Positions 1 to 32,847 of a stretch of 32,847 bases of DNA are shown here, one piece after another (the first letter of the stretch is position 1; the number at the start of each line of letters is the position of its first letter). The DNA is from a virus (lineage: Duplodnaviria; Caudoviricetes). The notes under the pieces were generated by a model that had not been told where the DNA came from, did no database searches, and was given only the letters and a program-made list of their open reading frames with translations. The position numbers and the translations under genes were made by a program. The DNA lies in IMG/VR virus record IMGVR_UViG_3300027769_000090, positions 1 through 32,847 of that record; one strand, written 5' to 3'.

Positions 1-110
1 CGAAAGGGCAGCCAGGGTAAACTAAGATTATCTGAGCGTAGAAAATAACCCATACCCACCATCTGCCAGGAGGGAGGCAGGGGTTTCTACCTCAGTATTG
101 TTTATTTATA
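1..110. other. probable genome end/cos-proximal region
   Basis: Non-coding, G-run-rich on the minus strand, between HNH and (via the junction) terS; the first 6 nt CGAAAG equal the last 6 nt of the window. Confidence 0.5.
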
Positions 111-1626: not shown

Positions 1627-1627
1627 C

Positions 1628-2745: not shown

Positions 2746-2748
2746 GTG

Positions 2749-2979: not shown

Positions 2980-3227
2980 TTGTTGTTTCTTCTTTCTTTT
3001 AGGTAGTGACTTCTGCACAGACTCTTTGCATAGTTTGGCTTATCACAAATACTGCATCTAACTTTATTGTTGTGGTAATTATTCTTTACTAAAGCATTAC
3101 GGCATGACTTACAGTAGTAATCATATCCATCATCGTTCTTACGCAATGGAGTTAACTTGTAGAAGAACTCTACAGACTTAGGAGTATTGCACTTAACGCA
3201 ACTCTTAAAGCCACCGTTTTCTATCAT
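2976..3227 (-). CDS. double zinc-finger protein
   Basis: CVKC...FY...CKSC then CSIC...CRSHY. Confidence 0.65.
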   Translation of the reverse strand: MIENGGFKSCVKCNTPKSVEFFYKLTPLRKNDDGYDYYCKSCRNALVKNNYHNNKVRCSICDKPNYAKSLCRSHYLKERRNNK

Positions 3228-3228
3228 G

Positions 3229-3735
3229 TTACTCAGACTCCTTATTCATAAACTCTTCGTATGTTTTTCTACCTTTAGTTTCGTTGCACTTTCTGTGGCA
3301 TGGTCTTACATTAGCAATGATATTGTCTCCACCCTTAGACATAGGAATTAAGTGATCAGGCCAAAAAGATTTCTCTGATCCTTGTCCTATCTTAGGTGCA
3401 TTAAAATCAACAGGCTTATTGCAGATATAGCAATCAGTTCCATATGTTGCTATTAGTTGCTCGTCTGTCCAGTTATCAGTAAGAACTCCTGCTGCCTTTG
3501 CTCGTTCTCTTCGTCTGATTGCTCGTCGCTTGTCTCTATTATTTATCTGCCACAAATGATAAGCCAACTTCATCTTTTCTGTATTCTCACGATAGTACTT
3601 GGCCATTCCCTTATTGTTGCAATCTCTACATATGCTCTTCAGTCCATACTTTCCTTTTGCTTGCTTATGAAAGTATTCTTCTGTTGCAGGGTATTCTTCT
3701 TTGCATCTTGTACATGTTCTAGTCATAGTTATCAT
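3229..3735 (-). CDS. HNH endonuclease with N-terminal zinc finger
   Basis: CTRC...CRDC, then CYICN...DHLIPMSKGG...NVRPCHRKCN. Confidence 0.9.
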   Translation of the reverse strand: MITMTRTCTRCKEEYPATEEYFHKQAKGKYGLKSICRDCNNKGMAKYYRENTEKMKLAYHLWQINNRDKRRAIRRRERAKAAGVLTDNWTDEQLIATYGTDCYICNKPVDFNAPKIGQGSEKSFWPDHLIPMSKGGDNIIANVRPCHRKCNETKGRKTYEEFMNKESE

Positions 3736-3905
3736 GCTATCACCAATGTTCTTTCACTATATTCCGCTAAATATTCACGGACTGTGGTGACACCCTTGTA
3801 ATCAAAGCATGACTCGCATATTTGTGTATGGCTGTAATCAATCTCATCAGCCACGAAGCCTTCACACCAGACACACATGAGGCTATCTAATTTATCTCTA
3901 TTCAT
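3732..3905 (-). CDS. small CxxC-CxxC protein (57 aa, not in ORF track)
   Basis: MNRDKLDSLMCVWCEG...CESCFDYKG...; AAGGGAG RBS; ATGA overlap with the HNH gene. Confidence 0.65.
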   Translation of the reverse strand: MNRDKLDSLMCVWCEGFVADEIDYSHTQICESCFDYKGVTTVREYLAEYSERTLVIA

Positions 3906-3955
3906 TTACTGCTCCCTTGTTAGTTGTATTTGCAACATCTCTGCTGCATACATTA

Positions 3956-3984
3956 AGTATATCATGACATTATTACTAATGCAA
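3956..3984 (-). promoter_or_regulatory. sigma70/SigA-type promoter TTGCAT-N17-TATACT with extended -10
   Basis: Minus strand TTGCAT tagtaataatgtcaTGa TATACT in an intergenic gap heading the zinc-finger/HNH operon. Confidence 0.7.
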
Positions 3985-4031
3985 CCTAAATGGCCTATTT
4001 TGACCAATTTCTTTAAATTGTTATCATTTCG

Positions 4032-5087
4032 TTATAATTCATACCAGCCCTTATTATGAAGGGTATAAAGTCTCTTAAAATAAGTATCATATCTATGTCT
4101 GACCTGATCCACTGAGTATAGACTTACTGCTCTTTCATGTATTGCCTTTGGATTTAGATTTTTAACATTCTCTGCTGCTTCCGCAAATTCTTTGATCGTA
4201 TGGCATTTGTAACCATTAAATCCATTAATAACAGTTTCAGAATACACACCCCAAGGCGTAGTAATTACTGGTGTTCCACAGGTCTGAGCCTCAACATGCA
4301 CATTTGCAAATGGCTCAATGTAGTATGTTGGGCAGAAGACTGCTGTAGCCTTTCCCATGAGTTCAGCCTTCTCTTTACCATAGACTGGCCCTATGTACTC
4401 GCCATAAGGTGGTTTAAAGTCTCCTACGCCTGCTACAACAAGACGCTTACCAAGATACTCTGCAACCTGTGAGGCAACATCTAATCCCTTGCGTGGAATC
4501 AATCTTCCTATGTAAAGGAAATAATCTTCTTTGTCTTCTACAAGAGGAAATCTTTCTGGCTCTAAATATCCAGGAATCACATCATCAAAGAAGTTTCCAT
4601 CTACTGCTGTAGGATTTGTATTCATGGCATAGATAGAGTGTCTCCATGCTTCTGATTCAAATACTCTAAATGGTGCAAATGTTCCACCATAGCCAATACC
4701 GTACTCAACTCTAATATTATTTGGGAACTCATTAGCAATGTCTACTTGGGTTGAACCAGCAATAAAGCAGATAAAGTCTTTTTGTTCTACTCGCTTCTTT
4801 AGTTCATTAATCACATTACCGTTAAAGATCTGCCATCCCTTTAGTTTTGAATCAAATGGGACATGCAAGAAATGCTTTCCATCTAGAAGTTCTAGTCTTT
4901 CTTCTTCTGAGATGCAAGAGATGAACTCTGTTACATTACCCTCATTTTCTGTACCACCATACAAGAACACCTCATAATCTAGGGAAGTCATCATGTTGCA
5001 GAACTTGCGAATCTTTTCTGTGTAAGCACAATTTTCAAAGTCTGCTGTTGTATTAGTGTGTGGCAGTCCAATAACATGTAGTCTCAA
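4032..5087 (-). CDS. glycosyltransferase, GT4 family (GT-B fold)
   Basis: FLYIGRLIPRKG and EPFANVHVEAQTCGTPVI (E-x7-E motif); TTG start with AAGGGGAC RBS. Confidence 0.9.
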   Translation of the reverse strand: MRLHVIGLPHTNTTADFENCAYTEKIRKFCNMMTSLDYEVFLYGGTENEGNVTEFISCISEEERLELLDGKHFLHVPFDSKLKGWQIFNGNVINELKKRVEQKDFICFIAGSTQVDIANEFPNNIRVEYGIGYGGTFAPFRVFESEAWRHSIYAMNTNPTAVDGNFFDDVIPGYLEPERFPLVEDKEDYFLYIGRLIPRKGLDVASQVAEYLGKRLVVAGVGDFKPPYGEYIGPVYGKEKAELMGKATAVFCPTYYIEPFANVHVEAQTCGTPVITTPWGVYSETVINGFNGYKCHTIKEFAEAAENVKNLNPKAIHERAVSLYSVDQVRHRYDTYFKRLYTLHNKGWYEL

Positions 5088-5108
5088 TTTATAGTCCCCT
5101 TGTCTTAA

Positions 5109-5288
5109 TTATTCTGTAGGCTTTGTAGCGTCTTCATACTGAATTGCCTCTTCTACAAGGTGTACAGCATTTCCATCAACATAAACATACTTTAGTTTTT
5201 GTCCTAGTTCAATAGATATTAGTTGTTCTACTGGAATATTCTTTACTCCAGCAAAAGCAATAATAAAATCTTTAATTATTTGTTCCAT
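5109..5288 (-). CDS. hypothetical protein (59 aa, not in ORF track)
   Basis: MEQIIKDFIIAFAGVKNIPVEQ...; AAGGAG upstream; fills the gap between neighbours. Confidence 0.6.
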   Translation of the reverse strand: MEQIIKDFIIAFAGVKNIPVEQLISIELGQKLKYVYVDGNAVHLVEEAIQYEDATKPTE

Positions 5289-5424
5289 TTGTTTGCTCCT
5301 TCATCTCGTCTATTATTTTGTTTAATCTATCAATAGCAGCATTTAGGCTGTCTATTGTTTCTTGTACTGTGTGTCTCAAAGGAACTTCTCCCCTTGTAAA
5401 ATCATCGTTTATAAATCCACCCAT
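5272..5424 (-). CDS. hypothetical protein (short coiled coil)
   Basis: Start re-set to MGGFINDD (AAGGAG upstream); the GTG at 5496 is an alternative. Confidence 0.5.
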   Translation of the reverse strand: MGGFINDDFTRGEVPLRHTVQETIDSLNAAIDRLNKIIDEMKEQTNGTNN

Positions 5425-5492
5425 TACTTTTCTCTCCTTGTTCCATCTTATTTCATTTCTTGCGTTAAAGAAATGTCTCCTAGGCAAGTGTA

Positions 5493-5750
5493 TCACGACT
5501 TGGTTATCCTTGGCGATTTGTTAATATTGGTTCTTTTGTTTCTTACATCAGCAATAGTGCTTTTTGCAAGGTCTGGTAAATCTTTTCCTTTGTTCCTTTT
5601 TTGCCATCCAATAATGTATTGTTCTAAGTGAGCATCAATTATCTTCATAGACTCTTCCTCAGACATAGCCTGAATCTGCTCTTCGTTATATTTTCTCCAA
5701 AAGGATTTAACTACTACTGGTTCATACATTTTCATTTTTGCTACTTTCAT
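5493..5750 (-). CDS. hypothetical protein
   Basis: 85-aa co-oriented ORF; several possible Met starts. Confidence 0.55.
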   Translation of the reverse strand: MKVAKMKMYEPVVVKSFWRKYNEEQIQAMSEEESMKIIDAHLEQYIIGWQKRNKGKDLPDLAKSTIADVRNKRTNINKSPRITKS

Positions 5751-5850
5751 AAAAATAAACTAACCAACCAATTGATAGTCCAATGATTAGACTTCCTGTT
5801 ATCAGGTTAATAACTCCTGCAACAAATATTGCTTTTAATACATTATCCAT
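5722..5850 (-). CDS. small single-pass membrane protein (42 aa, probably leaderless; not in ORF track)
   Basis: MDNVLKAIFVAGVINLITGSLIIGLSIGWLVYFYESSKNENV; ATG lies 6 nt after a TATAAT box. Confidence 0.6.
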   Translation of the reverse strand: MDNVLKAIFVAGVINLITGSLIIGLSIGWLVYFYESSKNENV

Positions 5851-5856
5851 ATAATG

Positions 5857-5885
5857 ATTATACTCTAATGTTTATTATAAAGCAA
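5857..5885 (-). promoter_or_regulatory. promoter TTGCTT-N17-TATAAT, leaderless geometry
   Basis: TATAAT-cattat-ATG(5850) with no Shine-Dalgarno. Confidence 0.7.
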
Positions 5886-5889
5886 AGTA

Positions 5890-6225
5890 TTTATAGTTAC
5901 CCTGGCCTTGCCAGGAAAGGCTAACGCCTTTAATATTTAAAGTTTAAAAGTTCAATCAGTCTTGGTTAATAACTCTGATTAACTAAAGTCCGTAGGACTT
6001 TGCTTGCGAAGCAAGCGTAATATGTAATTGTTTTTTGATATAAGTAACCTTGGTATTTTACAAACACACTTGATTATTAATCATTTTCCCTTCACTGATG
6101 GCCAAGGATAGGGCGAGTGAGTTCTTCACCTTAACGGATTCCCGTCACATTAAGCACGACCTCTTGCGATTCTCCGTGCCCCTAATAAACCATCCAAGTA
6201 GGTGGATGCGTAGGTTTACTGCAAT
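5890..6225. other. structured non-coding region (candidate replication origin or ncRNA)
   Basis: Dense inverted repeats: AAAGTCC-GTA-GGACTTT (5985-6001), GCTTGC-GAA-GCAAGC (6002-6016), TGATTA-T-TAATCA (6071-6083), multi-stem 6109-6184, nested stem 6186-6218. Confidence 0.5.
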
Positions 6226-6226
6226 T

Positions 6227-6520
6227 TTATTGTTGTCGCTGTTTTTGGTAGTACTCCCTTTTTGTTTTTACTTGTTGCTTGAAAGTTCCCTCTGGATCAT
6301 GGATGTGACACAGAGTTCCAGTTCTCCATTCATCAACAAAGTTTGGACATGGCTTTTTCTTTTTTGTTAGAGAAGTACATCTTACAGTACTCTTCTTCTT
6401 TTTGTCAATTTGAACAGTTTTTACAACAGGCTTTGGCTGTCTTAACTGCTCTAAAACTTTATGCACTGCAGACTTTGCTGTTAAAGCAATATCTGAATCA
6501 TTGCCGTATTGAACTAACAT
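6227..6520 (-). CDS. basic protein with C-x9-C...C-x2-H zinc-binding motif
   Basis: RCTSLTKKKKPCPN...LCHIHDP; AAGGGAG RBS. Confidence 0.65.
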   Translation of the reverse strand: MLVQYGNDSDIALTAKSAVHKVLEQLRQPKPVVKTVQIDKKKKSTVRCTSLTKKKKPCPNFVDEWRTGTLCHIHDPEGTFKQQVKTKREYYQKQRQQ

Positions 6521-6603
6521 ATTTTGCTCCCTTGCTCTGTCGTGAATCTATCTTACCACGATGTTTTATTAAAAAGCAAACTATGGAACAAACTACTCAT
6601 AAT

Positions 6604-6626
6604 GGACAAAACGGACAAAACGGACA
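6604..6626 (+). repeat. three GGACA direct repeats with 9-bp period
   Basis: GGACAAAAC GGACAAAAC GGACA. Confidence 0.7.
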
Positions 6627-6636
6627 TTAGAGACAC

Positions 6637-6682
6637 AAAAAAAGGCCTAATGCGGAGAACGGGAGCAATACGCACTAGGACC
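6637..6682 (-). terminator. intrinsic terminator
   Basis: ~11-bp GC-rich stem followed directly by TTTTTTT on the minus strand. Confidence 0.7.
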
Positions 6683-6723
6683 TTCTTTGTTCTATGGATT
6701 ACTTGGAGGTGATCAACATAGAA
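6637..6723 (-). ncRNA. candidate ~85-nt small RNA or attenuator leader (two hairpins plus U-tract)
   Basis: Begins just downstream of a TTGACA-N17-TATACT promoter; hairpin 1 TTCTATG...CATAGAA encloses GATCACCTCC; hairpin 2 GGTCCTAGTGCG...CGCATTAGGCC is followed by T7. Confidence 0.55.
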
Positions 6724-6727
6724 TATC

Positions 6728-6756
6728 AGTATAGCAGGTGTTATAATTTGTGTCAA
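6728..6756 (-). promoter_or_regulatory. near-consensus promoter TTGACA-N17-TATACT
   Basis: Minus strand TTGACA caaattataacaccTGc TATACT. Confidence 0.8.
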
Positions 6757-6770
6757 ACAAATAGGGTTTC

Positions 6771-6869
6771 TTAGTAAACTTTGACTGTTACTGAGTTGCC
6801 GTCTTTATCAATTCTTGTTACTTCTTCGTATTCCAAAGACTCTAACGATACTTGTTGTTTTTCTGCCAT
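6771..6869 (-). CDS. hypothetical 32-aa protein (not in ORF track)
   Basis: MAEKQQVSLESLEYEEVTRIDKDGNSVTVKVY, starting 3 nt after the upstream stop. Confidence 0.45.
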   Translation of the reverse strand: MAEKQQVSLESLEYEEVTRIDKDGNSVTVKVY

Positions 6870-6872
6870 TTT

Positions 6873-7292
6873 TCAATACCACCTATTCTTTTGAAAATGT
6901 TTCCAGGCTCCACATGGAGTGGAATGCCGTCTTGATATGTAAGACAATGTAGCAACTAATTGGGCTACTGCACTATCTGACTTTTTCATGCCAAGACTAC
7001 TTACTGTTGAATCCAGCAGTTGGCCAAGGCCACTTGCGGTGGAGGTAGGGTTTTGAGCCTCTGGCCTCCAACTACTCTCCTTGCCAATCAACTTGGTTAA
7101 ACATATAAACTGCTTAGGATCAAGCAATTCCTTTGCTATTTCTTTTGCAGATACCTGCTCTAGTACTGGCCTTGGCTCGTAAACTATTGTAGGTTCTGGG
7201 TTTGCTGTGTCTGTCGTAATACTTGTTTGAATAAATACTGCTAGTAAAGAGACTATTAAAACTCTTTGCCAGATATGTTTATTACGCTTAAT
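6873..7292 (-). CDS. secreted or membrane-anchored lytic transglycosylase (SLT/Rpf-like lysozyme fold), probable ATT start
   Basis: CL..LI..ESSW...AQNP.S.A.GLGQLL...Q....L.YI..RH..PC.AW...WY motif; the frame stays open upstream of the track's TTG to AAGGAG-aaactt-ATT, adding a signal-peptide-like N-terminus. Confidence 0.8.
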   Translation of the reverse strand: MKRNKHIWQRVLIVSLLAVFIQTSITTDTANPEPTIVYEPRPVLEQVSAKEIAKELLDPKQFICLTKLIGKESSWRPEAQNPTSTASGLGQLLDSTVSSLGMKKSDSAVAQLVATLSYISRRHSTPCGAWKHFQKNRWY

Positions 7293-7349
7293 AAGTTTCT
7301 CCTTTGGTTGGTTAATACTTCTCCCCAGCCATTAGTCATACTTACCTCC

Positions 7350-7490
7350 TTATAGTTTATTACTTTCTATCATGTCACAAAGACGCTCAATAGTCCAAGA
7401 GTCTAGCCCTTCAACTTCTGAGATTCTTTCAAGGATTTCCTCACGAGCATATGCATACCCGTCAACAAAGCCCTCTTTATATTGTTCCAT
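7350..7490 (-). CDS. hypothetical 46-aa protein (not in ORF track)
   Basis: MEQYKEGFVDGYAYAREEILERISEVEGLDSWTIERLCDMIESNKL. Confidence 0.6.
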   Translation of the reverse strand: MEQYKEGFVDGYAYAREEILERISEVEGLDSWTIERLCDMIESNKL

Positions 7491-8085
7491 TGCTCAATTC
7501 TACACTATCCTTGCCTCTTTGTGGCTTTGTTAAGTTACACCAGCCATGAGATGGACGCACATTTTCTAATGTGTCTGGTCCTCCAAGGGCAATATCAATA
7601 AAATGTTCTATGTGAAGCCCTGTTTTCCATCCAGGCTTTCCAGTACTTCTTGGTGCATTTAGGTCAATTGGCATATCACAAAGATAACAGTTTGTTCCGT
7701 AAAGTTCTAAAACCTGAGCCTCTGCATAGGGCTGATGTTCATTTTGAAGTTTTCTGGCTCTTCTTATTCTACTTTTATTTCTAGAATTTGACTTTGCTTT
7801 TTCTGGGTTAGCATATCTCCATGCTTTGTTATCTTCTCTTAGTTTTTCTCTACCTTGAAGATCTCTCCAGCGTTTATTCATCTTTGAGACTTTATCTTTA
7901 TTAGATGTTGCCCATCTTTTTGATTTTTCTCTATTTTTGTCTGGATTATTTTTTGCCCAATCAGATCTTGTTTTATTATTACATTCTCTGCATGAAGAAA
8001 AAAACCCAGAAGGTCTATCTTTTCTTATTTGAAAATATTCAGATGTTTTAGGAAACTCCCGTTTACACTTAGTACATGTTTTCAT
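7477..8085 (-). CDS. HNH endonuclease with N-terminal zinc finger
   Basis: CTKC...CREC, then CYLCD...IEHFIDIALGG.D...NVRPSHGWCN; paralog of 3229..3735. Confidence 0.9.
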   Translation of the reverse strand: MKTCTKCKREFPKTSEYFQIRKDRPSGFFSSCRECNNKTRSDWAKNNPDKNREKSKRWATSNKDKVSKMNKRWRDLQGREKLREDNKAWRYANPEKAKSNSRNKSRIRRARKLQNEHQPYAEAQVLELYGTNCYLCDMPIDLNAPRSTGKPGWKTGLHIEHFIDIALGGPDTLENVRPSHGWCNLTKPQRGKDSVELSNGTI

Positions 8086-8091
8086 ACTATA

Positions 8092-8120
8092 AGTCTATCA
8101 CAGGATGCCCATTTTAGCCA
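8092..8120 (-). promoter_or_regulatory. extended -10 promoter (TGaTAGACT) with leaderless geometry
   Basis: TAGACT-tatagt-ATG(8085); weak -35 (TGGCTA) at 17 nt; no SD. Confidence 0.55.
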
Positions 8121-8167
8121 CCTAGCAGGCCCATAGAGCCACTTTTAGGCCTAAGATGTACCTGGAT

Positions 8168-8207
8168 AAGGAAAAAGACCTCAGAACTTAATCTGAGGCC
8201 CTTCCTT
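8168..8207 (-). terminator. intrinsic terminator ending the structural/lysis operon
   Basis: Minus strand GGCCTCAGA-ttaagt-TCTGAGGTC-TTTTT, downstream of the holin. Confidence 0.75.
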
Positions 8208-8281
8208 GTAGATAATTAACAGACATATATTTTATAGAGATGGTTCTGTATTTGATCTACATAGCCTTAGTATACTCTTAT

Positions 8282-8497
8282 TTATTTAGTTATGCCAAAT
8301 TCTTTTTCATTTGGTTGTAATGCTTTTAGTAGTGGTGCTGCAATACCTGCCAAAAATGCGTTTGCCAATACTTTTGGATCTGTTATGCCAGAAATGTAGA
8401 GGGCTAGAACTGCTGCTGCAGATGCTCTGAGCCATGATTGTGCTACGGCTAATGCTTGATCCTTTGTTGACTTTGGTGCTGGTTTCTTTGGTGCCAT
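8282..8497 (-). CDS. putative holin
   Basis: 71 aa, two hydrophobic helices, SW.R...AA.LA.Y..G.TD......AF.A....P....L.P....FG pattern, located at the end of the late operon. Confidence 0.7.
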   Translation of the reverse strand: MAPKKPAPKSTKDQALAVAQSWLRASAAAVLALYISGITDPKVLANAFLAGIAAPLLKALQPNEKEFGITK

Positions 8498-8499
8498 GA

Positions 8500-8730
8500 T
8501 TACTCCTTTGGTGTTACTTTTCTTTTAGGTCTTTCATTCTGAGTCATCAAAATAAGCATGATTTGTTCAACCTGCTTCTCTAGACGATTTACAGAATCCT
8601 TCAGGCTAGATCCGCTATTTTCTTTAAGTTCAACTAAATAATGCTTTACCATCCAACGAACTGCTGTAGCGAGTCCTCCAACTAAAGTAAAGATTGCTAC
8701 AAAAAATGCAGCCCAGTCTTGTGGTGTCAC
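8500..8730 (-). CDS. single-pass membrane protein of the lysis region
   Basis: GTG start (MTPQDW) with AGGAG RBS and GTGA overlap; TM helix then NSGSSLKDSVNRLE, a motif I recall from actinophage lysis-cassette proteins. Confidence 0.7.
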   Translation of the reverse strand: MTPQDWAAFFVAIFTLVGGLATAVRWMVKHYLVELKENSGSSLKDSVNRLEKQVEQIMLILMTQNERPKRKVTPKE

Positions 8731-9680
8731 TTGATTTCTCCTTGTATCCATTTGTATGTTTCAGATAAGCCGTATTCCAAATTCTCATCTGGTGCATAGC
8801 CTAAAACATTTTTAATTAGTGCATTATGTGAGGTTCTTGCATGTACTCCAAGAGGCCCTGGAATATGTTTCTTAGTTAGTGTCTTGCCTGCTATGCTGCA
8901 AACAATATCAACCAACTCATTTATAGACACATTCCTCTCAGAACCAATATTGATTGGCTCAAAGTATTTATCTTGTCTATAAAAGTCTATTGTGGCTTTG
9001 ATGGCTTCATCTATGTATAAGAATGAACGATGTTGTTCTCCGTTACCCCAGATTTCTATCTCATCAGTTGCCTTTGCTACCTTGCGACAAATGGCTGCAG
9101 GAGCCTTCTCCTTGCCTCCGTCCCAAGTTCCATAAGGACCGTATACATTGTGATATCTAACTACTTTGTTCTTCATCTTGTAGTTCTTGTTGTATGCAAG
9201 ATAAAGTCTTTCGCTAAACAATTTTTCCCAACCATACTCTGTGTCAGGTGCAGCAGGGTAGACAGAATCTTCACGAGTGTTAATGTTGTCTGGATCCATC
9301 TGGTTATATTCTGGATATACACAGGCTGTGGATGAGAACAAAATAGACTTAATTCCAACTATCTCTGCTCTCTTCAAAACATTTACATTGATCAGAATTG
9401 AGTTACCCATAACATCAGCGTCATTATCACCAGTATTGATGTATCCTGCTCCACCCATATCTGCTGCCAATTGATAGACTTCATCAAACTTCTTATCCAT
9501 CACGCTTTCAACAACATGTGGATCTCTTAAATCACCAATCACAAAATGATCAGCAAACGAAATAGAGAATTCTGGGTACTTTAAATCTACTCCACGAACC
9601 CAATAACCTTCTTGAACTAACTTCTTAACTAGATGGCTACCAATAAAGCCACCTGCTCCTAGGACTAATGCTGTTTTCAT
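8727..9680 (-). CDS. NAD-dependent epimerase, GDP-mannose 3,5-epimerase (GME)-like
   Basis: GAGGFIG, LAADMGG.G.I, STACVYPE, YGWEK (YxxxK), HNVYGP.GTW.GG.EKAPAA.CRK; start re-set to MKTALV (ATGA overlap). Confidence 0.88.
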   Translation of the reverse strand: MKTALVLGAGGFIGSHLVKKLVQEGYWVRGVDLKYPEFSISFADHFVIGDLRDPHVVESVMDKKFDEVYQLAADMGGAGYINTGDNDADVMGNSILINVNVLKRAEIVGIKSILFSSTACVYPEYNQMDPDNINTREDSVYPAAPDTEYGWEKLFSERLYLAYNKNYKMKNKVVRYHNVYGPYGTWDGGKEKAPAAICRKVAKATDEIEIWGNGEQHRSFLYIDEAIKATIDFYRQDKYFEPINIGSERNVSINELVDIVCSIAGKTLTKKHIPGPLGVHARTSHNALIKNVLGYAPDENLEYGLSETYKWIQGEIK

Positions 9681-10708
9681 ATCTTTGATTCTTTCCATTC
9701 TCTCCACCACATTTTCCTGGTGTTATCTAATGGGTAGCCATTCCAAGAATATGGAGTTCCCTGTGGTTTTGGTGGGTTATCAAAGAAATCCCATGTCTCA
9801 ATATCCTTTTGATTTCTATTTCTATGGATATAGGCACTATAGGTACTTCCTGATGTACCCACAAAATTTACAGAGTCATGAAGAACAAGGTTACAGATTA
9901 GTCCAAAGACAACTTCATCCTGAAATGGCAGGGCTTTAAAATCATCTGCAAAGTTATTAATAATATATTCATCAAGCAGTATAAACCTGTGCCTATTGTC
10001 CTGAACCATCTTGTGTCCTGGTTCACATGTTGAGACAACTATTGGTAGGTTGTTTTGCTCAAAGTTGTTTAGCCACCCTTCAAACATCTCTTGGGTAGTA
10101 TTAAACGCATGAACATGATCAGACAGCCTTAGATGCATACCCTGAAAGTTTCCAAGAGAGGCAGATATCTTGCTTGCTAAATCTACATATTCTTTCTTAA
10201 ACTTAACTGAAGATATTGCCTCATCTAATGCTTGGCTTCTATTATAGAAGAACCTGGAATACCAGCCCAATGTTCTTTTTATATGTAGAGTTTTATCTAA
10301 TGGTAGTCTTTGTCGTCCTTCAGCAAACATAATCTCATTATCTGAGACAGTCTCACTATTGCTATAGTAAAACTCATTTATCATGTCATCAATTACAAAC
10401 TCTTCTTGAGGAAAACTGTCTATTTTCTCATTAATGAAAATTAAGTTTTGATTAAAATCAAGTAAGTCTAACAGATGAGGAGACTGGTCTGATTTTATGA
10501 ACCATTCTCTTTGCTGATTATAAAGTGTGCTTGGAGTAAAGATAGCATTACTATTAGTATCAAACAAGTTAGTATCAGCCATATATTTTCCATAATGAAT
10601 TATTGCTGGAACATTTAACTCATTAGATAGTCCTACTGCTAACTCTAGGCTCATTACCTGGTTAATTAGTCCTGTAGGATTATATAACTGAAAGAACAAC
10701 TTGTTCAT
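9677..10708 (-). CDS. O-fucosyltransferase-like glycosyltransferase (O-FucT/POFUT-type GT-B)
   Basis: GLINQ near the N-terminus, GMHLR..D and FVGT.GSTYS are the conserved GDP-fucose-binding motifs. Confidence 0.8.
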   Translation of the reverse strand: MNKLFFQLYNPTGLINQVMSLELAVGLSNELNVPAIIHYGKYMADTNLFDTNSNAIFTPSTLYNQQREWFIKSDQSPHLLDLLDFNQNLIFINEKIDSFPQEEFVIDDMINEFYYSNSETVSDNEIMFAEGRQRLPLDKTLHIKRTLGWYSRFFYNRSQALDEAISSVKFKKEYVDLASKISASLGNFQGMHLRLSDHVHAFNTTQEMFEGWLNNFEQNNLPIVVSTCEPGHKMVQDNRHRFILLDEYIINNFADDFKALPFQDEVVFGLICNLVLHDSVNFVGTSGSTYSAYIHRNRNQKDIETWDFFDNPPKPQGTPYSWNGYPLDNTRKMWWREWKESKI

Positions 10709-11502
10709 TACATAGAGTCTTTTTCGTTACCGTCTGCTCTTCCCAATTCTGGGTCTGGATTGAAGGCTGCAAAAGTTCCATTAGTTCTAGGCTTTTTAAC
10801 TTCACCTTGAATTGGATCAAGTTTGTAGCGATTGCCCCAATATCCATTAGGATAAAAATATGGGCTTTCTGGATTATCAGTCTTTGTTGGCAATGGATTC
10901 TCGTTCCAGTTATCTTTAATTGTAACTAGTGATGCTCCACAAAAACGCTCTCCTGAAGTTACTTTTTTAACTCCATGACGAGTATTTCCTTCATGCATAG
11001 CCATAGATCCTGCTTTTGGCTTATACCAATAATCATAATCTGGGTAGTAGATCTCTCCACCTTCGTAATCATCATTAATGTAAAATACGCTGCCCCACAT
11101 GATTGGACTTTCCATGTGTCCTTGATTATCTATATGGATAAACATCTCTAGTTCAGTTCCTCCATTAAAGAATGCATCGCTTGCTCCGTCATACATCTTA
11201 ATTAGATTGTGATCAGAAGGAATCCATTCTGCTTGATGGTCGTGCTCATTAAGAACATCGCTAATTCTTTGCTTAATAGTGTTTAGAGTAGGCATTATAG
11301 GGTCCATAATATTTTCATACCCTGGATTTAAACTCATCTGATAGCCATTAATTAAACGCTTACCCCAGTACTTAAACTCGTGTTCTTTTAATCCGTCATA
11401 CTTAAAGTTCCTCATAAATGAGTCTAATAGACTAACTTCTTCTGGTGTTAAGAAGTCTTCAAATATCATAACTTTTCCATCACAGTGCTTTTCTAATTTC
11501 AT
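10708..11502 (-). CDS. 2OG-Fe(II) oxygenase, prolyl 4-hydroxylase-like, with Pro-rich C-terminal extension
   Basis: HID, YINDDYEGGE, HGVKKVTSGER. Confidence 0.88.
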   Translation of the reverse strand: MKLEKHCDGKVMIFEDFLTPEEVSLLDSFMRNFKYDGLKEHEFKYWGKRLINGYQMSLNPGYENIMDPIMPTLNTIKQRISDVLNEHDHQAEWIPSDHNLIKMYDGASDAFFNGGTELEMFIHIDNQGHMESPIMWGSVFYINDDYEGGEIYYPDYDYWYKPKAGSMAMHEGNTRHGVKKVTSGERFCGASLVTIKDNWNENPLPTKTDNPESPYFYPNGYWGNRYKLDPIQGEVKKPRTNGTFAAFNPDPELGRADGNEKDSM

Positions 11503-12065
11503 CCTAAGTTCCTCTCAATAGCCTTCTGTTGTCTAATCTCGTCGTGCTTTTCTTTAGGTTCAGTTATAAACCAATGGTCTGGTTCCACATAGTGAAAGAA
11601 GACTACTCCTATTTTACCAGTATTGTTATAAAGTGTCTCTCTCCAGTGCTCATACTCTTCTCCCATAAATAGAATTGCTTCGTTTGGGTTTGCGATGTAT
11701 GGCTTTCCTTCTATGTAAAGTGCCCATGGATCTCCTTGATAGAGAACCAAATCAAGTGTATATGTGCAAGCGTTCACATCTTTATGTTTAGGAAGATTAA
11801 TAATCTCATCACAATACTCTGCAAATAGAGAATATGATGTTACACAGGTTTTTGTTCCAAAGTACTCTCTTACTATTGGTAATAATATTTCACTAAACTC
11901 TTGTAGTATTGGCTCTACCTGGTCTCCCAGCAATTTTCTGCCAAAGTCCTCTGTTTTCATAGAGTCTAATTTAGGATTGTTTTTAAAATGCATACGAAGT
12001 CTATCAAAGTCATAAGGACTTAAGACATTCTTAATTAATCCAACTTCTCTATTTATCGTATCCAT
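11499..12065 (-). CDS. 2OG-Fe(II) oxygenase (phage type)
   Basis: HKD...C.YT, A.LF.GEE.EHWRE, VFFHYV. Confidence 0.8.
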   Translation of the reverse strand: MDTINREVGLIKNVLSPYDFDRLRMHFKNNPKLDSMKTEDFGRKLLGDQVEPILQEFSEILLPIVREYFGTKTCVTSYSLFAEYCDEIINLPKHKDVNACTYTLDLVLYQGDPWALYIEGKPYIANPNEAILFMGEEYEHWRETLYNNTGKIGVVFFHYVEPDHWFITEPKEKHDEIRQQKAIERNLG

Positions 12066-12622
12066 TGAACCACCACATATCTTAGGCCATCTGTTACTGG
12101 GTATACCTGATGGTGATACATAAAGTTTGAAGGGAAAATCAGAAGATCACCCTTTTTAGCCTTAAATCTAAGTCCATGTCTCTTGAACTCTACATCGCCA
12201 CCCTCATACTCATCATTTAAGTAATAAGTCATTGATACTCTTCTGGTTAATTTTGGATGATCATCTACATGATAGTTAAATTTTTGTTCTTTTCCATACC
12301 GCAAAAGATGAGGAGGCTCAAAATCTTCTATTACTGCTCCATACTCACGAATGTATTGATCCAAACATGGCTTTATGCTTTCATAAAAGGCTTTTGAAAA
12401 GTTAGCAAGAGCAGTATCGTCTTGTGTATCGTGCTTAGGAAGACCAATTATGTCTGTATCTCTGTGACTATTATCTGTGCCAATTTTATTTCCTGCAGCA
12501 TCTGTAAGCAATACTCCTGCTGGTTCCCAATGTGAATTTGATTCTTCTATCTTCTTAAGATATTCCATTGAGTCAGGAAATATATTTTCAAATATTACTA
12601 TACCTGGTGCTAGTTCTTTCAT
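12053..12622 (-). CDS. 2OG-Fe(II) oxygenase, prolyl 4-hydroxylase-like
   Basis: HVD, YLNDEYEGG, IFPSNFMY.H.V.PVTDGLRY. Confidence 0.9.
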   Translation of the reverse strand: MKELAPGIVIFENIFPDSMEYLKKIEESNSHWEPAGVLLTDAAGNKIGTDNSHRDTDIIGLPKHDTQDDTALANFSKAFYESIKPCLDQYIREYGAVIEDFEPPHLLRYGKEQKFNYHVDDHPKLTRRVSMTYYLNDEYEGGDVEFKRHGLRFKAKKGDLLIFPSNFMYHHQVYPVTDGLRYVVVQWIR

Positions 12623-12623
12623 A

Positions 12624-12851
12624 TTACCACTTCCCTATTGGACAGACTGCTGATTGTAGTTTTGTTTTTAAGGCCATAAAACAGCCACACTTTTTACAGT
12701 TTCCTGTTAACTCTATTAACTGTGGGCATGACTTGCATATCTCAAATCTTTCCCTGCCCAAATTTTCATCTTCTACATGCTTGCTTGAATCAATCAGATC
12801 CCAAGGCCTAGTATCTCCTAAAGACTCTTTCCATTCACTCCATTTTGACAT
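12624..12851 (-). CDS. Cys-rich small protein (DUF6171-like)
   Basis: R..IC..C......C..CGCF...K......CP..KW. Confidence 0.7.
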   Translation of the reverse strand: MSKWSEWKESLGDTRPWDLIDSSKHVEDENLGRERFEICKSCPQLIELTGNCKKCGCFMALKTKLQSAVCPIGKW

Positions 12852-12887
12852 TTTGTCCCCTTTTGTTGTTCTATTTTACACTAAAAT

Positions 12888-13076
12888 TTAAGATTGTGGT
12901 GGATGAAACTCAGATCCATCCCATGTCCAATTCTTGTCTACTTCAGATTCTATTGGTAATTCAACAAAAACTGGATTATTTAAACAGGCATTGGTAATAT
13001 CCTGAAACTTAGTTCTGCTTGGAACATTTAGTACAGCAACAACATCTTCTTCTACAACTAAAATAAATTTTTTCAT
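12888..13076 (-). CDS. small hypothetical protein (fibre-associated type)
   Basis: 62 aa ending WTWDGSEF..P; similar layout to 13077..13274. Confidence 0.65.
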   Translation of the reverse strand: MKKFILVVEEDVVAVLNVPSRTKFQDITNACLNNPVFVELPIESEVDKNWTWDGSEFHPPQS

Positions 13077-13274
13077 TTATATTGTTTCCGTTTCTACGCC
13101 ATTGATATATTTCCAGCCCATTTCTACCTTTGAGGATGCTGAAACTTCAAAACATTCTGGGCTTGAAAGCATTCCAGCAATAGTTCCTTGTCTTACAGCG
13201 TCGTCATCTTTAAGAGCAATGATTGCAACAACAACATTGTTATTGTCTATCATAGCGACTTTTCTATTAGCCAT
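13077..13274 (-). CDS. small hypothetical protein (fibre-associated type)
   Basis: 65 aa, A.ID.NNVV......V..GW.Y..G; AAGGAG RBS. Confidence 0.65.
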   Translation of the reverse strand: MANRKVAMIDNNNVVVAIIALKDDDAVRQGTIAGMLSSPECFEVSASSKVEMGWKYINGVETETI

Positions 13275-13316
13275 TAATTTCTCCTTATGTCTAGTATACC
13301 ATTTGTGCTTCTTATA

Positions 13317-13781
13317 TTAACAGCCAACACAATCACCACCAATATAGAAGCAACACACTTGTCCTGGATCGTTGCCACAGTATGCAGTAGAACAATCAAT
13401 TGGTGTAGCGATGATTGCAATAATAGGTGTAGCGATGATAGGTGTAGCGATGATAGGTGTAGCGATAATTGGTGTAGCGATGATAGGGGTTGCAATTATA
13501 GGCGTTGCAATAATAGCAATAATAGGTGTTGCGATAATAGGTGTTGCGATAATAGGTGTTGCAATGATCGCAATAATAGGCGTAGCAATGATAGGAGTCG
13601 CAATAATTGGAGTAGCAATGATAGCGATAATAGGAGTCGCAATGATTGGTGTCGCAATGATTGGTGTCGCAATGATTGGTGTCGCAATGATTGGTGTAGC
13701 AATGATTGGAGGAGGTGGTGGTGGTGCAATGTACTGTAACGGTACACCTATTCCACTTGGACTACGAAATAATGGACTCAC
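13317..13781 (-). CDS. Pro/Thr-rich repeat protein: P6-(IIATP)18 with a 6-Cys C-terminal domain
   Basis: GTG start with GAGGAG RBS; DNA variation among repeat units is synonymous in this frame. Confidence 0.8.
   Translation of the reverse strand: MSPLFRSPSGIGVPLQYIAPPPPPPIIATPIIATPIIATPIIATPIIATPIIAIIATPIIATPIIATPIIAIIATPIIATPIIATPIIAIIATPIIATPIIATPIIATPIIATPIIATPIIAIIATPIDCSTAYCGNDPGQVCCFYIGGDCVGC
13398..13709. repeat. coding tandem repeat, 15-bp unit (18 copies) with four 9-bp partial units
   Basis: GCAATGATTGGTGTC-like units encoding IIATP/IIA. Confidence 0.9.
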
Positions 13782-13802
13782 TTTTCTCCTCTTTCCTAAT
13801 AA

Positions 13803-19506: not shown

Positions 19507-19917
19507 TTATGGAGTTGTATCTTTTTCAATTGTGCCATAAATTGGCCAGTCAACCGTTACAGTTGCAAGGCTTCCTGGAGTTCCTGTTAAAGGAGCCCAT
19601 TGGCTAACAAGTGCTTGAAATCTGTATTCAGGATTCGTAGCACTTATTGCTGCATTTTCTGGTCTTACTGAACAATTAATTAACAATCCTCTGTTTGGAT
19701 ATATTACAGATTCTAGTTGCGATACACCAAAATCTTGCATTAGTTCAAGGCTTAAAGAATTGTCCTCAAGCCCTGCAACCATCTTTTTTGCAATATCTCC
19801 AACCTGTGTAACCTCAACCAAGTCATAAACTGTTCCAAAACTTATGGAAGAGCAATGATCAGAAACATCATAGCCATCTAAAATTATTCTGGGGTTAGTT
19901 AAGACTAGTTTTGACAT
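19507..19917 (-). CDS. tail tube protein paralog 2
   Basis: LVLTN...D.S...SS.......VE.T..G......AGL.D.S...E.M.DF...NP.Y...L.S.W.PL.G..G.L.TV.V.WP..G.I.K, shared with 19924..20382. Confidence 0.8.
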   Translation of the reverse strand: MSKLVLTNPRIILDGYDVSDHCSSISFGTVYDLVEVTQVGDIAKKMVAGLEDNSLSLELMQDFGVSQLESVIYPNRGLLINCSVRPENAAISATNPEYRFQALVSQWAPLTGTPGSLATVTVDWPIYGTIEKDTTP

Positions 19918-19923
19918 GATCTA

Positions 19924-20382
19924 TTACGCTGTTGCCTTTACGATTTGTCCGCTTACAGGCCATGTGACAGAAACAGTTGATAGTTCACCAACGGCTCCAT
20001 TTAGAGGAGTCCATTCTGAAATCAAAACCTGTCCTGCCTTTGTTGCACCTGATCCTGAACCATCAGCCTTGTAAATTGGATTTGTTACAGATACTGCTGC
20101 TGAAGTTGGCTTGATTGTGAAATTCGCCAATTCTCCAATTCCAATTGCGCTTATTACTTGCTCAAGAGCACCTGATGCAAAGTCATTCATAAATTCTACG
20201 GTTACTGAATGATCCTTTAGTCCTGCTGTTCTTGTTCGTGCTCCTGCTGGTCCAAAACCTGTGGTCTCAACCACATCTTCTGGTGTGTTAATTGTGACGC
20301 TAGAAATGTATTCTGATATGTCAGTTAGTGGAGCACTTGCTCCAATTTCTACAACTGCATTTGTTAATACTAAACGAGCCAT
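19924..20382 (-). CDS. major tail tube protein
   Basis: Same tail-tube motif set; strong AAGGAG RBS; canonical position. Confidence 0.85.
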   Translation of the reverse strand: MARLVLTNAVVEIGASAPLTDISEYISSVTINTPEDVVETTGFGPAGARTRTAGLKDHSVTVEFMNDFASGALEQVISAIGIGELANFTIKPTSAAVSVTNPIYKADGSGSGATKAGQVLISEWTPLNGAVGELSTVSVTWPVSGQIVKATA

Positions 20383-26000: not shown

Positions 26001-29403
<3,403 letters not shown>

Positions 29404-29411
<8 letters not shown>

Positions 29412-29760
29412 TTGCTGTTACCTGAGCCCTTACTGTTATTTGACCTTGAATTAAACGAGTGATCTCAGAACCTGCTGTAAGTTCTAAATCATAAAGATAA
29501 AATCCTGCTGGTATCGCTTCTGTCTGCAAAACAGTTGCAAGAACAGCAATGCCTCCAGTTAAAGGAGTAATTGTAAGTCCACCATTAGATGTAGTTAGTG
29601 TCAAAACAGCATTAGATGTGAACTTTTCTCTAAGTTGCATACGAGCAGTATAACCAGTAAGATTAACTGGGTTTCCGTTGTAGTCTGTATAAACAATGTT
29701 TACAGTCCAAGTAGCCCCTTGATCAATTACTGTGTTATATATACCTGCAGTACCTGGCAT
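29404..29760 (-). CDS. fibre-base/adaptor protein (BppU-N-like Ig fold)
   Basis: YN..IDQGATW......[13 protein letters not shown]...YDLEL...RL.QG...V pattern commonly found before fibre genes. Confidence 0.7.
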
Positions 29761-29925: not shown

Positions 29926-31440
29926 TTATTTAAATGAATAAAATCTTGGTACAGGCTGCTTAGGTGGTGCTGGTTGTGTGCTTCTATCATACCCAAAAAT
30001 AGCAGCAACTGCTGCGTCAATCTTGCGTTTGTTATTAGCCTTAGAGACCATCAGACCTCTTGATGAAGTCTTTGTTACACAGTTTGCAATGTGTCTTGCT
30101 AGTCTTGGATCTCCATCATGTGTGAAAGAACCGTTAACTACTGCTTCATAAAACTTTTGTGTTGCTGGCACCATACGCTCTGCAGAGTTAGGATATGAAA
30201 TCACAGGTAGACCTGCTTCATCTAGAACCATGAATGTTCTATTCCATCTTGCTGGGTCAAAGACAATTTCACGAACACTGAAATCTGGATTTCTGTAGTA
30301 ATCAACAATTGTCTCTTCCACCTCTGCAACATTAACATGCCAATTTGGATCAGGATCTACCTCTGGTATTTCCCACAATCCAATAATTTTAAGATGAGGC
30401 TTTTCGCCTCCAAGGAACCAACCAACAACTGCAGTTGCATCATTAGAGAAAGCACCATCAAAAGCAATTATAGCATCTTCTCCAGGAATATGCTCTCTGT
30501 CTTTAAGAGTAAGTGCCTCCCATAAATCAGAGTTGATCCATGATGCACCTGTACTTGTCCAGATATTCAAACGCTTAGTTTTAAATTCATTCTCTGGTGT
30601 AAGTGCTGCAGCAGACTGCATATCCTCTTCAGAAACGATATCTCCAAGGGATGGATTGGCTAAAGCCCAGTTTGCTTCGTCCTTATAATTGAGTTTTTCG
30701 TCTCCCTGCCACCATGCAAAGAAGAAAGTAGGGTCTTCAATCTCGCCTTTTGTGAGTTGAATACCTCTGTTGTACATAGAATAGCAGACAGAATCCTTAC
30801 CAGAAGAGTCATATTTAGAGCCTGCTGTGGTAATTGCTACCAACATTGGCTCAGTTCTAGCACCCATAGATAGTGATAAAACATCATATAACTCTCTATT
30901 TGGCTGTGCATGTAACTCATCAAGTACGATAAATGTAGAGTTTAAACCTTCTTTTGTGTATGCATCAGAAGATAATGCTCTATAAACAGATCCAGTGCTA
31001 GGGTTATATATAGTGTTTTGGAATACTTGTAGTATTTCACTTAACTCTGGTTCTAGTTCAATCATTTTCTTTACCGTTTTAAAAATAATACGAGCCTGTT
31101 CTTTATCAGCAGCAGCAGAATAAATCTGACCACCACGAACACCAAGAACTAATTGCTCTAAAACAAGTGAAGCGATAAGAGCAGACTTGCCGTTCTTTCT
31201 GGCTACGCCAATTAGAGCACGGCGATGTTTTAGAAGGCCATCTTCTCTTTCAGCATACAAATGTAGCAATAAATCTTTTTGCCAGTCACGCAATAGAAAC
31301 TTGTCTCCAGTATTTCCAGCGATAGAGTCTTCAGTCAGGCGACATAGAGTCTCTATGAAGTCAATAGCCTCATATCCACGACTGTTGGCTAACTCTGTTT
31401 TAGAAACGGGCGATAAATAAGTAGGTGGCCACATGCTCAC
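29926..31440 (-). CDS. terL: terminase large subunit
   Basis: L..WQ, Walker A ARKNGKS, Walker B IVLDELH, ITTAG, ANPSLG, nuclease DG....D, KIDAAVA. Confidence 0.96.
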   Translation of the reverse strand: MSMWPPTYLSPVSKTELANSRGYEAIDFIETLCRLTEDSIAGNTGDKFLLRDWQKDLLLHLYAEREDGLLKHRRALIGVARKNGKSALIASLVLEQLVLGVRGGQIYSAAADKEQARIIFKTVKKMIELEPELSEILQVFQNTIYNPSTGSVYRALSSDAYTKEGLNSTFIVLDELHAQPNRELYDVLSLSMGARTEPMLVAITTAGSKYDSSGKDSVCYSMYNRGIQLTKGEIEDPTFFFAWWQGDEKLNYKDEANWALANPSLGDIVSEEDMQSAAALTPENEFKTKRLNIWTSTGASWINSDLWEALTLKDREHIPGEDAIIAFDGAFSNDATAVVGWFLGGEKPHLKIIGLWEIPEVDPDPNWHVNVAEVEETIVDYYRNPDFSVREIVFDPARWNRTFMVLDEAGLPVISYPNSAERMVPATQKFYEAVVNGSFTHDGDPRLARHIANCVTKTSSRGLMVSKANNKRKIDAAVAAIFGYDRSTQPAPPKQPVPRFYSFK

Positions 31441-32240
31441 ACCTTTAGGGCAAACGATAGCCTGTCATTGTCTATATCAATTTCCAAGACTTCTACTTCT
31501 ACATCATGGCCAATAGTAAATTGCTCAGGAGTATACTTGCCCATTTTAGTCTTGTGCAATAGTCCAGAGACCATGCCCAATGAAACAAATACGCCAAAGT
31601 TTGTGATACCTGAGACCTTGCCTACATAGACTTCGCCTTGTCTTAGTTTTCCAAACTCTGCTATCTTATCTTGCTTAAATTCATTTTGCAAAAGTGCTTT
31701 TCGTGAGATAACAATATTACCCTTTTCTCTTTCAAACTGGATAACCTTGGCTTCAACAGTTTTTCCAATCCAAGAACTAAAGTCTTCTGTTCTTTCTACA
31801 TGGAATTGAGATGCAGGTAAGAATGCTCTTACTCCAATATCTACAATCATTCCACCCTTAACAATTTTAGTGATCTCGCCAGAGACAACATTATTATCAG
31901 AATGGAATATGGCCTCAATTGAGTTCCATAGCATCTCTACTTCTGCTTGCTTCATAGATAATGTATATTGGCCTTCTTCGTCAATAGAAAGAACTGTGCC
32001 TTCTACTGCCTGGCCAATTGACAGGACTTCATTAATATCAGAAATGCGTCTTGCTGTTACTTCTCTTCTTGGAACAAAGGCTTCTGTCTTATAGCCAATA
32101 TCAACAAGGACTCCTTCACGATCAATTCCTACTACTATGCCCTTGACCATATCGTTAACCTGAATATACTTTATTGATTCGTCAATTGCCTTTAGGAAGT
32201 CTTCTGCTGTTCCTATGTCGTTAATTGCTACTTGATTCAT
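31437..32240 (-). CDS. rpsA: 30S ribosomal protein S1 (bS1) homolog, three S1 domains, C-terminally truncated
   Basis: QVAINDIG.AEDFL.AID..IKY, DIGYKTE, VKGG.I.DIG.R.FLPAS, N.V.SR.A.L, G.VS.I.NFG.FV.LG.V.GL.H, V.VEVL..D.D..R.S..LK are collinear with actinobacterial RpsA D1-D3. Confidence 0.92.
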   Translation of the reverse strand: MNQVAINDIGTAEDFLKAIDESIKYIQVNDMVKGIVVGIDREGVLVDIGYKTEAFVPRREVTARRISDINEVLSIGQAVEGTVLSIDEEGQYTLSMKQAEVEMLWNSIEAIFHSDNNVVSGEITKIVKGGMIVDIGVRAFLPASQFHVERTEDFSSWIGKTVEAKVIQFEREKGNIVISRKALLQNEFKQDKIAEFGKLRQGEVYVGKVSGITNFGVFVSLGMVSGLLHKTKMGKYTPEQFTIGHDVEVEVLEIDIDNDRLSFALKV

Positions 32241-32745
32241 TGTCTATCATTTCCCCTTGTGTTGTGTCTTCTTCTGCAAATACTAGTTTAGCACGATTTT
32301 CTCGTCTCTCCAATAATTTATCAATTGAAGTTGCTGCTCTTACTTCTGCTACTCCAAGACGAGATCTTGAAACTGGATCAAAGCCAAGTGAGGTCAGAGA
32401 ATCAGTATACGCTTTATTGATAGCAACATAAGCCTTAGCATCTGCAGGCTCTGTAGAAATCATATATCTATCTCTTGCTGCTTCATTAGCATCAGCCAAA
32501 TGTGCTGCATTTTTAATAGCCTCAATATCACTAACAGGGCTAAGCCAAGTAACAGCCACACCCCAAGCACGATTCCATAAATCTAATCCAGATTGCTTAA
32601 GGCTCTCTGGTGGTGTTGGTATTTCTCTCGCCATAGGCAAATGACTAATTGTATTTAAATCAGGCAAAGGTCTTCCACCAGGGTTGCCTAATATTCTTTT
32701 TAGTTCATTTGGCTTAGGAGGTCGTCCTGCCGTTGGTTGAGCCAT
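32221..32745 (-). CDS. terS: terminase small subunit (P27-family-like)
   Basis: GRPPKP.ELK...GNPG.R.L, P.PP.L, LGF.P.SR.RL. Confidence 0.9.
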   Translation of the reverse strand: MAQPTAGRPPKPNELKRILGNPGGRPLPDLNTISHLPMAREIPTPPESLKQSGLDLWNRAWGVAVTWLSPVSDIEAIKNAAHLADANEAARDRYMISTEPADAKAYVAINKAYTDSLTSLGFDPVSRSRLGVAEVRAATSIDKLLERRENRAKLVFAEEDTTQGEMIDNESSSN

Positions 32746-32847
32746 TATTTATTTTTTTCCATTTCTATTCGTCCCCTTTTCAAACATGGTTGACACTTTT
32801 GTCCCAAATGTCCAAATCTTGTAATTTCGCTATGATATATACGAAAG

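Follow-up and report, generated by a model that had tools for sequence, protein, structure and literature searches.

A Three-Domain Homologue of Ribosomal Protein S1 Encoded Between the Terminase Genes in a Clade of Small Freshwater Phages

Genes and Features of the Locus

The window, i.e., the whole stretch of DNA analyzed (32,847 nucleotides), is a whole phage genome of 32.8 kb, 98% complete, in which the genes for the terminase small subunit (terS), an S1 protein, the terminase large subunit (terL), a tail fibre, the portal, a protease, the capsid and the tail follow one another on one strand (Table 1). The ends of the window overlap by 6 nt and join between the HNH gene and terS at ACCCTGGCTGCCC, and a start 102–103 nt before terS (window 32745–32847) is shared by many contigs; we infer that the genome end is a fixed cos-type terminus.

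The 20-bp overlap between terS and the S1 gene described in the initial annotation is real, and 56 of the 78 S1-bearing contigs have it at precisely this length. A GTGA overlap with terL, also described there, had to be abandoned: it arises because the ORF finder picks the first GTG, while the actual terL start is an ATG located 2 nt beyond the S1 stop, and an in-frame terL ATG or GTG lies 1–2 nt past this stop in all the distinct homologues (73/73). In the homologues, a G-rich motif occupies the same place as the AAGGGG of the S1 gene. The suggested translational coupling of S1 to the late genes is retained, given the overlap with terS and a terL ribosome-binding site located within the last S1 codons. 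Scanning for promoters in front of terS gave no usable signal (18 found against 29 expected). In one relative, a 756-nt insert (L214:620-1376) lies between terS and S1.

Table 1. Coordinates of the features discussed, numbered along the window.
Feature	Position	Strand	Remarks
Conserved ACCCTGGCTGCCC 13-mer at genome end	6..18	(-)	between HNH and terS
Predicted small RNA gene	6640..6756	(-)	promoter, two hairpins, U tract
terL, terminase large subunit	29926..31434	(-)	PF03354, PF20441; phrog_9
terL ribosome-binding site	31440..31445	(-)	encoded by last S1 codons; terL ATG at 31434
Three-domain bS1 (RpsA) homologue, 267 aa	31437..32240	(-)	packaging operon gene 2
S1 domain 3, residues 199-266	31443..31646	(-)	F/Y215, F218, H229, R260
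S1 domain 2, residues 115-183	31692..31898	(-)	K128, F140 = E. coli K117, F130, SD-helix pocket
S1 domain 1, residues 25-98	31947..32168	(-)	D47, K51 = E. coli D39, K43, uS2 zinc pocket
N-terminal anchor helix, residues 12-24	32169..32207	(-)	predicted uS2 contact; F15, I19 = E. coli F5, F9
terS, terminase small subunit	32221..32745	(-)	phrog_83; 20-bp overlap with S1 start
S1 ribosome-binding site AAGGGG	32253..32258	(-)	inside terS; from sequence

Identity and Domain Organization of the S1 Protein

The S1 ORF contains three Pfam S1 stretches and is collinear with RpsA from its N-terminus. In NCBIfam, RpsA models account for its 12 best matches (E 9.5e-74 to 5.9e-29), with the other S1-domain proteins GSP13, PNPase and RNase R scoring below them. 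The best solved relative is the bS1 of M. smegmatis (8wi7_b, E 3.3e-73), aligned over residues 10–277 of 479, an E. coli-type S1 giving a weaker match (E 2.5e-48). Collinearity with actinobacterial RpsA and a stop right after the third S1 domain, both noted in the initial annotation, are thus borne out. The predicted structure displays three OB folds (pLDDT 82), and the top PDB fold matches of this model are ribosome-bound bS1 proteins. Against the PRK07899-type equivalog, which we take to be the actinobacterial full-length RpsA, the phage protein reaches 248.8 bits for a cut-off of 691 and covers profile positions 9–277 of 486. Judged by its sequence, it is a truncated RpsA derivative lying outside the full-length equivalog, which has four S1 domains and a C-terminal region.

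Like the phage S1, the bS1/RpsA of Actinomycetes (M. smegmatis, PDB 8WI7) has an anchor helix and domains 1–3 in collinear order, with the same contact residues. However, the bS1/RpsA proteins of Actinomycetes are ~435–500 aa long with domain 4 and a C-terminal region, whereas the phage proteins (261–269 aa across 73 distinct sequences) lack both; the latter are ~43% identical to the former, have a less acidic domain 3 with a shorter loop, and are encoded in a terminase operon. PHROGs has no family for the phage S1 protein, the 271-aa protein is without a name in the Atlas, and a search of the viral fold library gave only longer phage S1s at ~20% identity. Many family members are automatically labeled "small subunit ribosomal protein S1" in databases.

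Distribution in a Small-Phage Clade

The gene belongs to a family of freshwater phages with 32–34 kb genomes in which S1 is fixed between terS and terL. A protein search returned 979 matches and, among the 120 listed, lengths range from 266 to 280 aa and identities to the phage S1 from 64 to 99%. The order terS-S1-terL was found in 78 of 80 viral contigs chosen by terS and not by S1 (near-duplicates included), the other two ending at most 27 nt from the terS stop. When loci were picked by terL, leaving out five with too little upstream DNA, S1 was present in 57 of the 62 with at least 64% identity and at least 150 nt upstream, and in none of the 13 below 64%. The five S1-less loci, at 64–70% terL identity, form a sister group in which terS abuts terL. 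On a 51-row terL tree, S1 corresponds to one change (SH-aLRT 99); it was gained once, and the sister phages are without it. No S1 turned up among 80 more loci close to Pontimonas phage phiPsal1, of which 42 have 900 nt or more upstream, or in five S1-less records searched over their full length, and of 38 INPHARED records matched none is a close relative (all <60%).

Both S1 junctions are spanned by contigs assembled from separate, independent DNA runs, which speaks against a chimeric join, and the GC of the gene (0.38) matches that of the genome. Half or more of the sampled words were recovered in 15 metagenome runs, including those of freshwater, estuary and wastewater. Contigs from RNA libraries of two studies cover the S1 gene, the libraries being unstranded, without a silent-stretch control and open to DNA carry-over.

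Origin and Host

In quick trees, the phage S1 proteins form one long-stemmed clade beside the S1 of Actinomycetes, within Actinomycetota, in agreement with the actinobacterial-type origin initially suggested; mean phage-host identity is ~43%. A family of small-genome Actinomycetes (1.0–2.2 Mb), which presumably resembles acI/Nanopelagicales, is a candidate donor, sharing with the phages three near-fixed sites (Q38, V133, F256) and a short N-terminus. In the donor test, mean identity is equal (0.429 vs. 0.432) and the diagnostic sites divide into 6 and 7; a tree constrained to join the phages and this family is 9.2 log units higher, but with a p-AU of 0.66. The rpsA genes of the same family mostly appear to start at TTG or GTG (L278-L307).

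A possible Actinomycetes host is suggested by the relatives of terL and capsid and by whiB in the S1-less sister genome G260. The nearest cultured terL is that of phiPsal1 (44.7%), and all 61 capsid matches are mycobacteriophages. The whiB gene is absent from the window and from 7/7 S1-bearing records, and present in G260 and in 6/15 S1-less records. Genome GC passes from 47–49% in the sister group to 37–43% in the S1-bearing clade.

Selection and Conserved Contact Residues

The S1 gene is under purifying selection. Its median dN/dS is 0.20 (Nei-Gojobori, pairs with dS 0.1–1; 584 of 2628 pairs, which are non-independent), for 0.07 in terL and 0.11 in terS with the same approach; the homologues therefore do not evolve neutrally, although S1 evolves two to three times faster than terL and terS. 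The lowest value within the gene (0.11) is that of the anchor helix. With synteny and the bridged junctions, this agrees with the initial view that S1 is no stray host fragment. Domain identities amount to 91–94% among the host Actinomycetes, 58–66% among the phages and 42–47% between phage and host.

Eleven E. coli S1 residues with published roles were mapped through the bS1 alignment, F79 being left out. They comprise the uS2 contacts F5, F9, D39, and K43 (PMC10123108, which did not observe the D39 salt bridge), the SD-helix pocket formed by K117, F120, and F130 (PMC10123108, section 13), and the RNA-binding Y205, F208, H219, and R254 (PMC4176380). Nine of the 11 are retained by 98% or more of the 73 sequences from phages; for other host-conserved sites that are neither Gly nor Pro, the proportion is 17 of 159 (Fisher p 5e-7). 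The remaining two contact sites change conservatively (L to M/L/F, F to F/Y). Facing uS2, F15, D47, and K51 occur in 73/73 sequences and I19 in 72/73, as in hosts, so that the uS2-docking residues are kept as supposed. K128 and F140 of the SD-helix pocket are found in 73/73, with M, L, or F at position 131, as are F/Y215, F218, H229, and R260 of domain 3, which correspond to the four RNA-binding residues. The divergence of the OB folds reported initially is therefore correct overall (42–47% identity to Actinomycetes), but does not extend to the contact residues. Similarly, the N-terminal segment was described as almost unchanged, and this is true for the F-x-x-A-I helix, but not for QVAINDIG, the ND[IL]G part of which occurs in only 57 of 73 homologues and has been replaced in a subclade. 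Domain 3 carries a net charge of -2.0 in the phages vs. -6.9 in the host, with acidic residues lost beside H229 (D225 to S/A, E232 to K/Q), and four residues are deleted from its loop relative to the host.

Phage Translation Signals

SD-led genes represent 69–83% of phage genes, compared with 26–32% for positions inside genes, and phage start regions are weakly structured. The possibility of leaderless or SD-less phage mRNAs was ruled out by these SD-led genes. The enrichment of A in leaders over coding sequence is 1.10–1.23 in the S1-bearing phages, 1.15–1.18 in S1-less relatives and 1.18 in one host; no phage-specific A-rich leader signal was thus found beyond the S1-less relatives or the host. 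Since the phages use SD sequences, unlike the huge phages that carry S1, the need for an S1 of their own is not obvious.

Proposed Role on Host Ribosomes

The reading that we favor, with a probability of about 60%, is that a working minimal S1 is swapped onto the host 30S subunit late in infection, where it loads mRNAs and probably favors those of the phage. Made together with the packaging genes, and hence late to judge from its operon position, the three-domain protein would likely dock on the 30S via uS2 in place of the four-domain host S1; domains 2–3 would then load mRNAs, the beneficiary probably being the phage's own SD-led, unstructured late messages. The steps do not carry equal weight. 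Docking on the 30S is highly probable on sequence grounds, and the mycobacterial bS1 docks on uS2 with the same helix and domain 1 (PMC6133939, PMC10799931). Active mRNA delivery, rather than blocking, is suggested by the retention of domain 3 and of its RNA face, which points to a working minimal S1. Least secure is a preference for the messages of the phage: of the initial proposal of a swap-in S1 retargeting ribosomes to phage messages, the swap-in is favored, but the retargeting finds no echo in leader A-enrichment, which is the same as in S1-less relatives. The fast evolution of S1 and its long stem branch also mean that its function may have shifted. As to the C-terminal region absent from the phage protein, its link to tmRNA mentioned in the initial annotation is disputed (PMC10931766).

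The engineered E. coli S1 restricted to domains 1–3 ends at the same boundary as the phage protein and is the minimal form keeping 30S binding and mRNA docking (PMC3858243); since the cut coincides with the minimal functional E. coli S1, a swap-in is favored over a dominant negative. The same E. coli allele, however, supports only extremely slow growth (PMC3858243) and, like the loss of domain 4 and of the C-terminus, would also fit a dominant-negative or weakened plug that holds the S1 site, starves host mRNAs needing domain 4 and passes the strong-SD, unstructured mRNAs of the phage. This alternative, unlikely but the best placed, stays alive because unstructured SD-led leaders, which are those of the phage, can bypass S1 (PMC3296737). 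Known dominant-negative fragments nevertheless consist of domain 1 or domains 1–2, which displace S1 and stop bulk translation in E. coli (PMC3296737). The phage S1 is natural, selected, diverged and of neither length: domain 3, intact in sequence, is full-length in 73/73 homologues, with F218, H229, and R260 invariant and acidic residues lost, which places it outside this class. As its RNA-binding residues are kept whereas known dominant-negative fragments have no domain 3, a plain dominant negative, as envisaged initially, is disfavored.

Marginally less probable than blocking is a role away from the ribosome, as a late-mRNA chaperone, a cofactor of a phage process or a uS2-bound repressor. 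S1 has many such roles, Q-beta replicase uses exactly S1 domains 1–3, and the S1-bearing phages have no recognizable replication genes; yet the invariant residues are those contacting uS2 and the SD helix, the anchor helix is the most constrained stretch of the gene, and no phage partner is evident. Lower still stands a non-selective top-up or defense bypass, in which the phage protein would replace a host S1 that is scarce, bound in hibernating ribosomes or disabled by a defense. The participation of bS1 in mycobacterial ribosome hibernation (PMC6133939, PMC10799931) is in line with this and the fast divergence of the surface around fixed contacts would suit evasion, but neither a fixed truncation nor a changed domain 3 is necessary for a mere top-up. 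Finally, an assembly chimera or decaying host fragment, conceivable because a ribosomal gene in a viral contig may stem from contamination, retains practically no probability in view of the synteny, the bridged junctions, the genome-like GC and the dN/dS.

Relation to Known Systems

Phage S1 proteins have already been published for huge phages; here, a three-domain form is a core gene of small phages. For the rpS1-like proteins of huge phages it has likewise been proposed that a phage-encoded S1 replaces that of the host and redirects initiation (PMC7162821). That group, however, is made of genomes >200 kb, with up to six domains and rare SD sequences (PMC7162821), against three domains and SD-led genes in ~33 kb here (32.8 kb for the window), which sets the present family apart, as do its traceable origin and fixed synteny. 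The authors of PMC7162821 were unable to confirm the S1-like genes of huge phages as true rpS1, and link them to a lack of SD. The phage bS21 found by terL and capsid genes, likewise a ribosomal protein related to initiation, has a fixed place in the packaging region in a freshwater clade, and is absent below ~70% terL identity (PMC9723584), similar to the limit observed here for S1. It is a different protein, in phages of another host phylum with large genomes, and lies on the opposite strand (PMC9723584), whereas the small-phage S1 lies on the same strand as terS and overlaps it; the available part of that paper makes no mention of bS1.

The main survey of viral ribosomal proteins left out S1 as ambiguous (PMC6375957), and a freshwater survey, as far as its accessible text goes, lists only S21 and L12 (bioRxiv 670067). 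A recent cultured example, the bS1 of PhiMa05, is contested (PMC13157829, PMC13623518). No paper on a small-phage S1 family was found in the published literature, most subscription journals and the supplement of bioRxiv 670067 being outside the search. The standing of phage S1-domain proteins as genuine ribosomal S1 had been left in doubt; in sequence terms, the family removes this doubt, and reveals that a 33-kb phage retains S1 as a core gene. It provides a natural counterpart of the minimal S1 made in the laboratory, in hundreds of variants that share the fixed contact residues, and makes directly testable the building of specialized ribosomes by phages, the function of domain 4 in Actinobacteria and the effect of S1 on mRNA preference.

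A Predicted Small RNA Element Displaying the 16S Tail

A promoter (TTGACA-17-TATACT) at 6756 precedes an element of ~85 nt with two hairpins and a terminal U tract (folding z -5.1). The loop of hairpin 1 displays GAUCACCUCC (6714-6705), identical to the 16S 3' tail of two candidate hosts and to the sequence bound by Era (PMC10582724), and the loop of hairpin 2 reads UCCC. The motif CACCTCC follows such a promoter in 12/12 distinct S1-bearing loci, anchored by the neighboring gene, but not in G260. The element with the tail core CACCUCC occurs in 7/7 S1-bearing records, once per genome searched, and in 1/15 S1-less records; for ten of these 15, the absence of S1 was judged solely by the flank of terL, and seven are <90% complete. 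Shuffled genomes give 139 of 2000. G260 constitutes a weak control since it avoids both CCTCC and GGAGG genome-wide. In this genome (L544, L545), GGAGG is present once for 35 expected and CCTCC 0 times for 24 expected, a rarity pointing to a restriction site or nuclease target that this genome avoids.

Covariation concerns 7/17 pairs, all in hairpin 2, hairpin 1 being invariant and without any. Loop 2 pairs best, out of 32, with the start region of the next gene (-21.3 kcal/mol); the small RNA may therefore be a local regulator, although cross-genome support for this pairing is weak (292 of 10000 permutations, with crude starts), and the downstream gene differs among genomes. In the window, the region complementary to loop 2 is the ribosome-binding region of a 97-aa zinc-finger-like gene (6227-6550, (-)). 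A functional link between the small RNA and S1 would rest on their co-occurrence in one clade. Tentatively, and rather doubtfully, a lineage of small phages with no recognizable replication genes could take control of translation initiation by two ribosome mimics, with the minimal S1 replacing that of the host and selecting phage mRNA and the RNA either blocking GGAGGUG-led host messages or acting as a decoy for factors that bind the tail, such as Era. An avoidance of GGAGG as a shield from the small RNA was rejected (4/177 genes in S1-bearing phages, 5/181 in hosts, 0/42 in the sister), and 110 of 119 loci from a loose RNA pattern scan, having neither hairpin nor clade marker, were dropped as chance. 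Rfam gave no match for the two-hairpin element, and no paper matching a tail-mimic RNA of this family was found in the published literature, most subscription journals lying outside the search.

Other Gene Content

When the ORFs of the window, G261, and G262 were scanned, none matched a polymerase, primase, helicase, SSB, or recombinase family, small ORFs staying unannotated, and tblastn with the proteins serving replication and recombination in G260 and phiPsal1 gave no match at E 0.01 in five S1-bearing genomes. No recognizable replication, recombination or WhiB gene lies in window 898-13800 (-) or in G261-G264. The S1-less sister G260 carries, between the same flanking genes, a primase-polymerase, an exonuclease and methyltransferases, with RusA and WhiB just upstream. 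No tRNA or tmRNA was found in the genome.

Between terL and portal, S1-bearing genomes have a collagen-repeat tail fibre gene and a phrog_1084 gene (26001-29760, (-)), neither with a tblastn match in G260. Two tandem genes (19507-20382, (-)) both match the major tail protein family phrog_4574. After the tail genes, an ORF of 154 aa, which contains numerous IIATP repeats and ends in a Cys-rich stretch (13317-13781, (-)), is variable among relatives. A variable block (4032-12622, (-)) encodes a glycosyltransferase, a sugar epimerase and three 2OG-Fe(II) oxygenase-like proteins, its version in relatives carrying a carbamoyltransferase or a UDP-glucose dehydrogenase.
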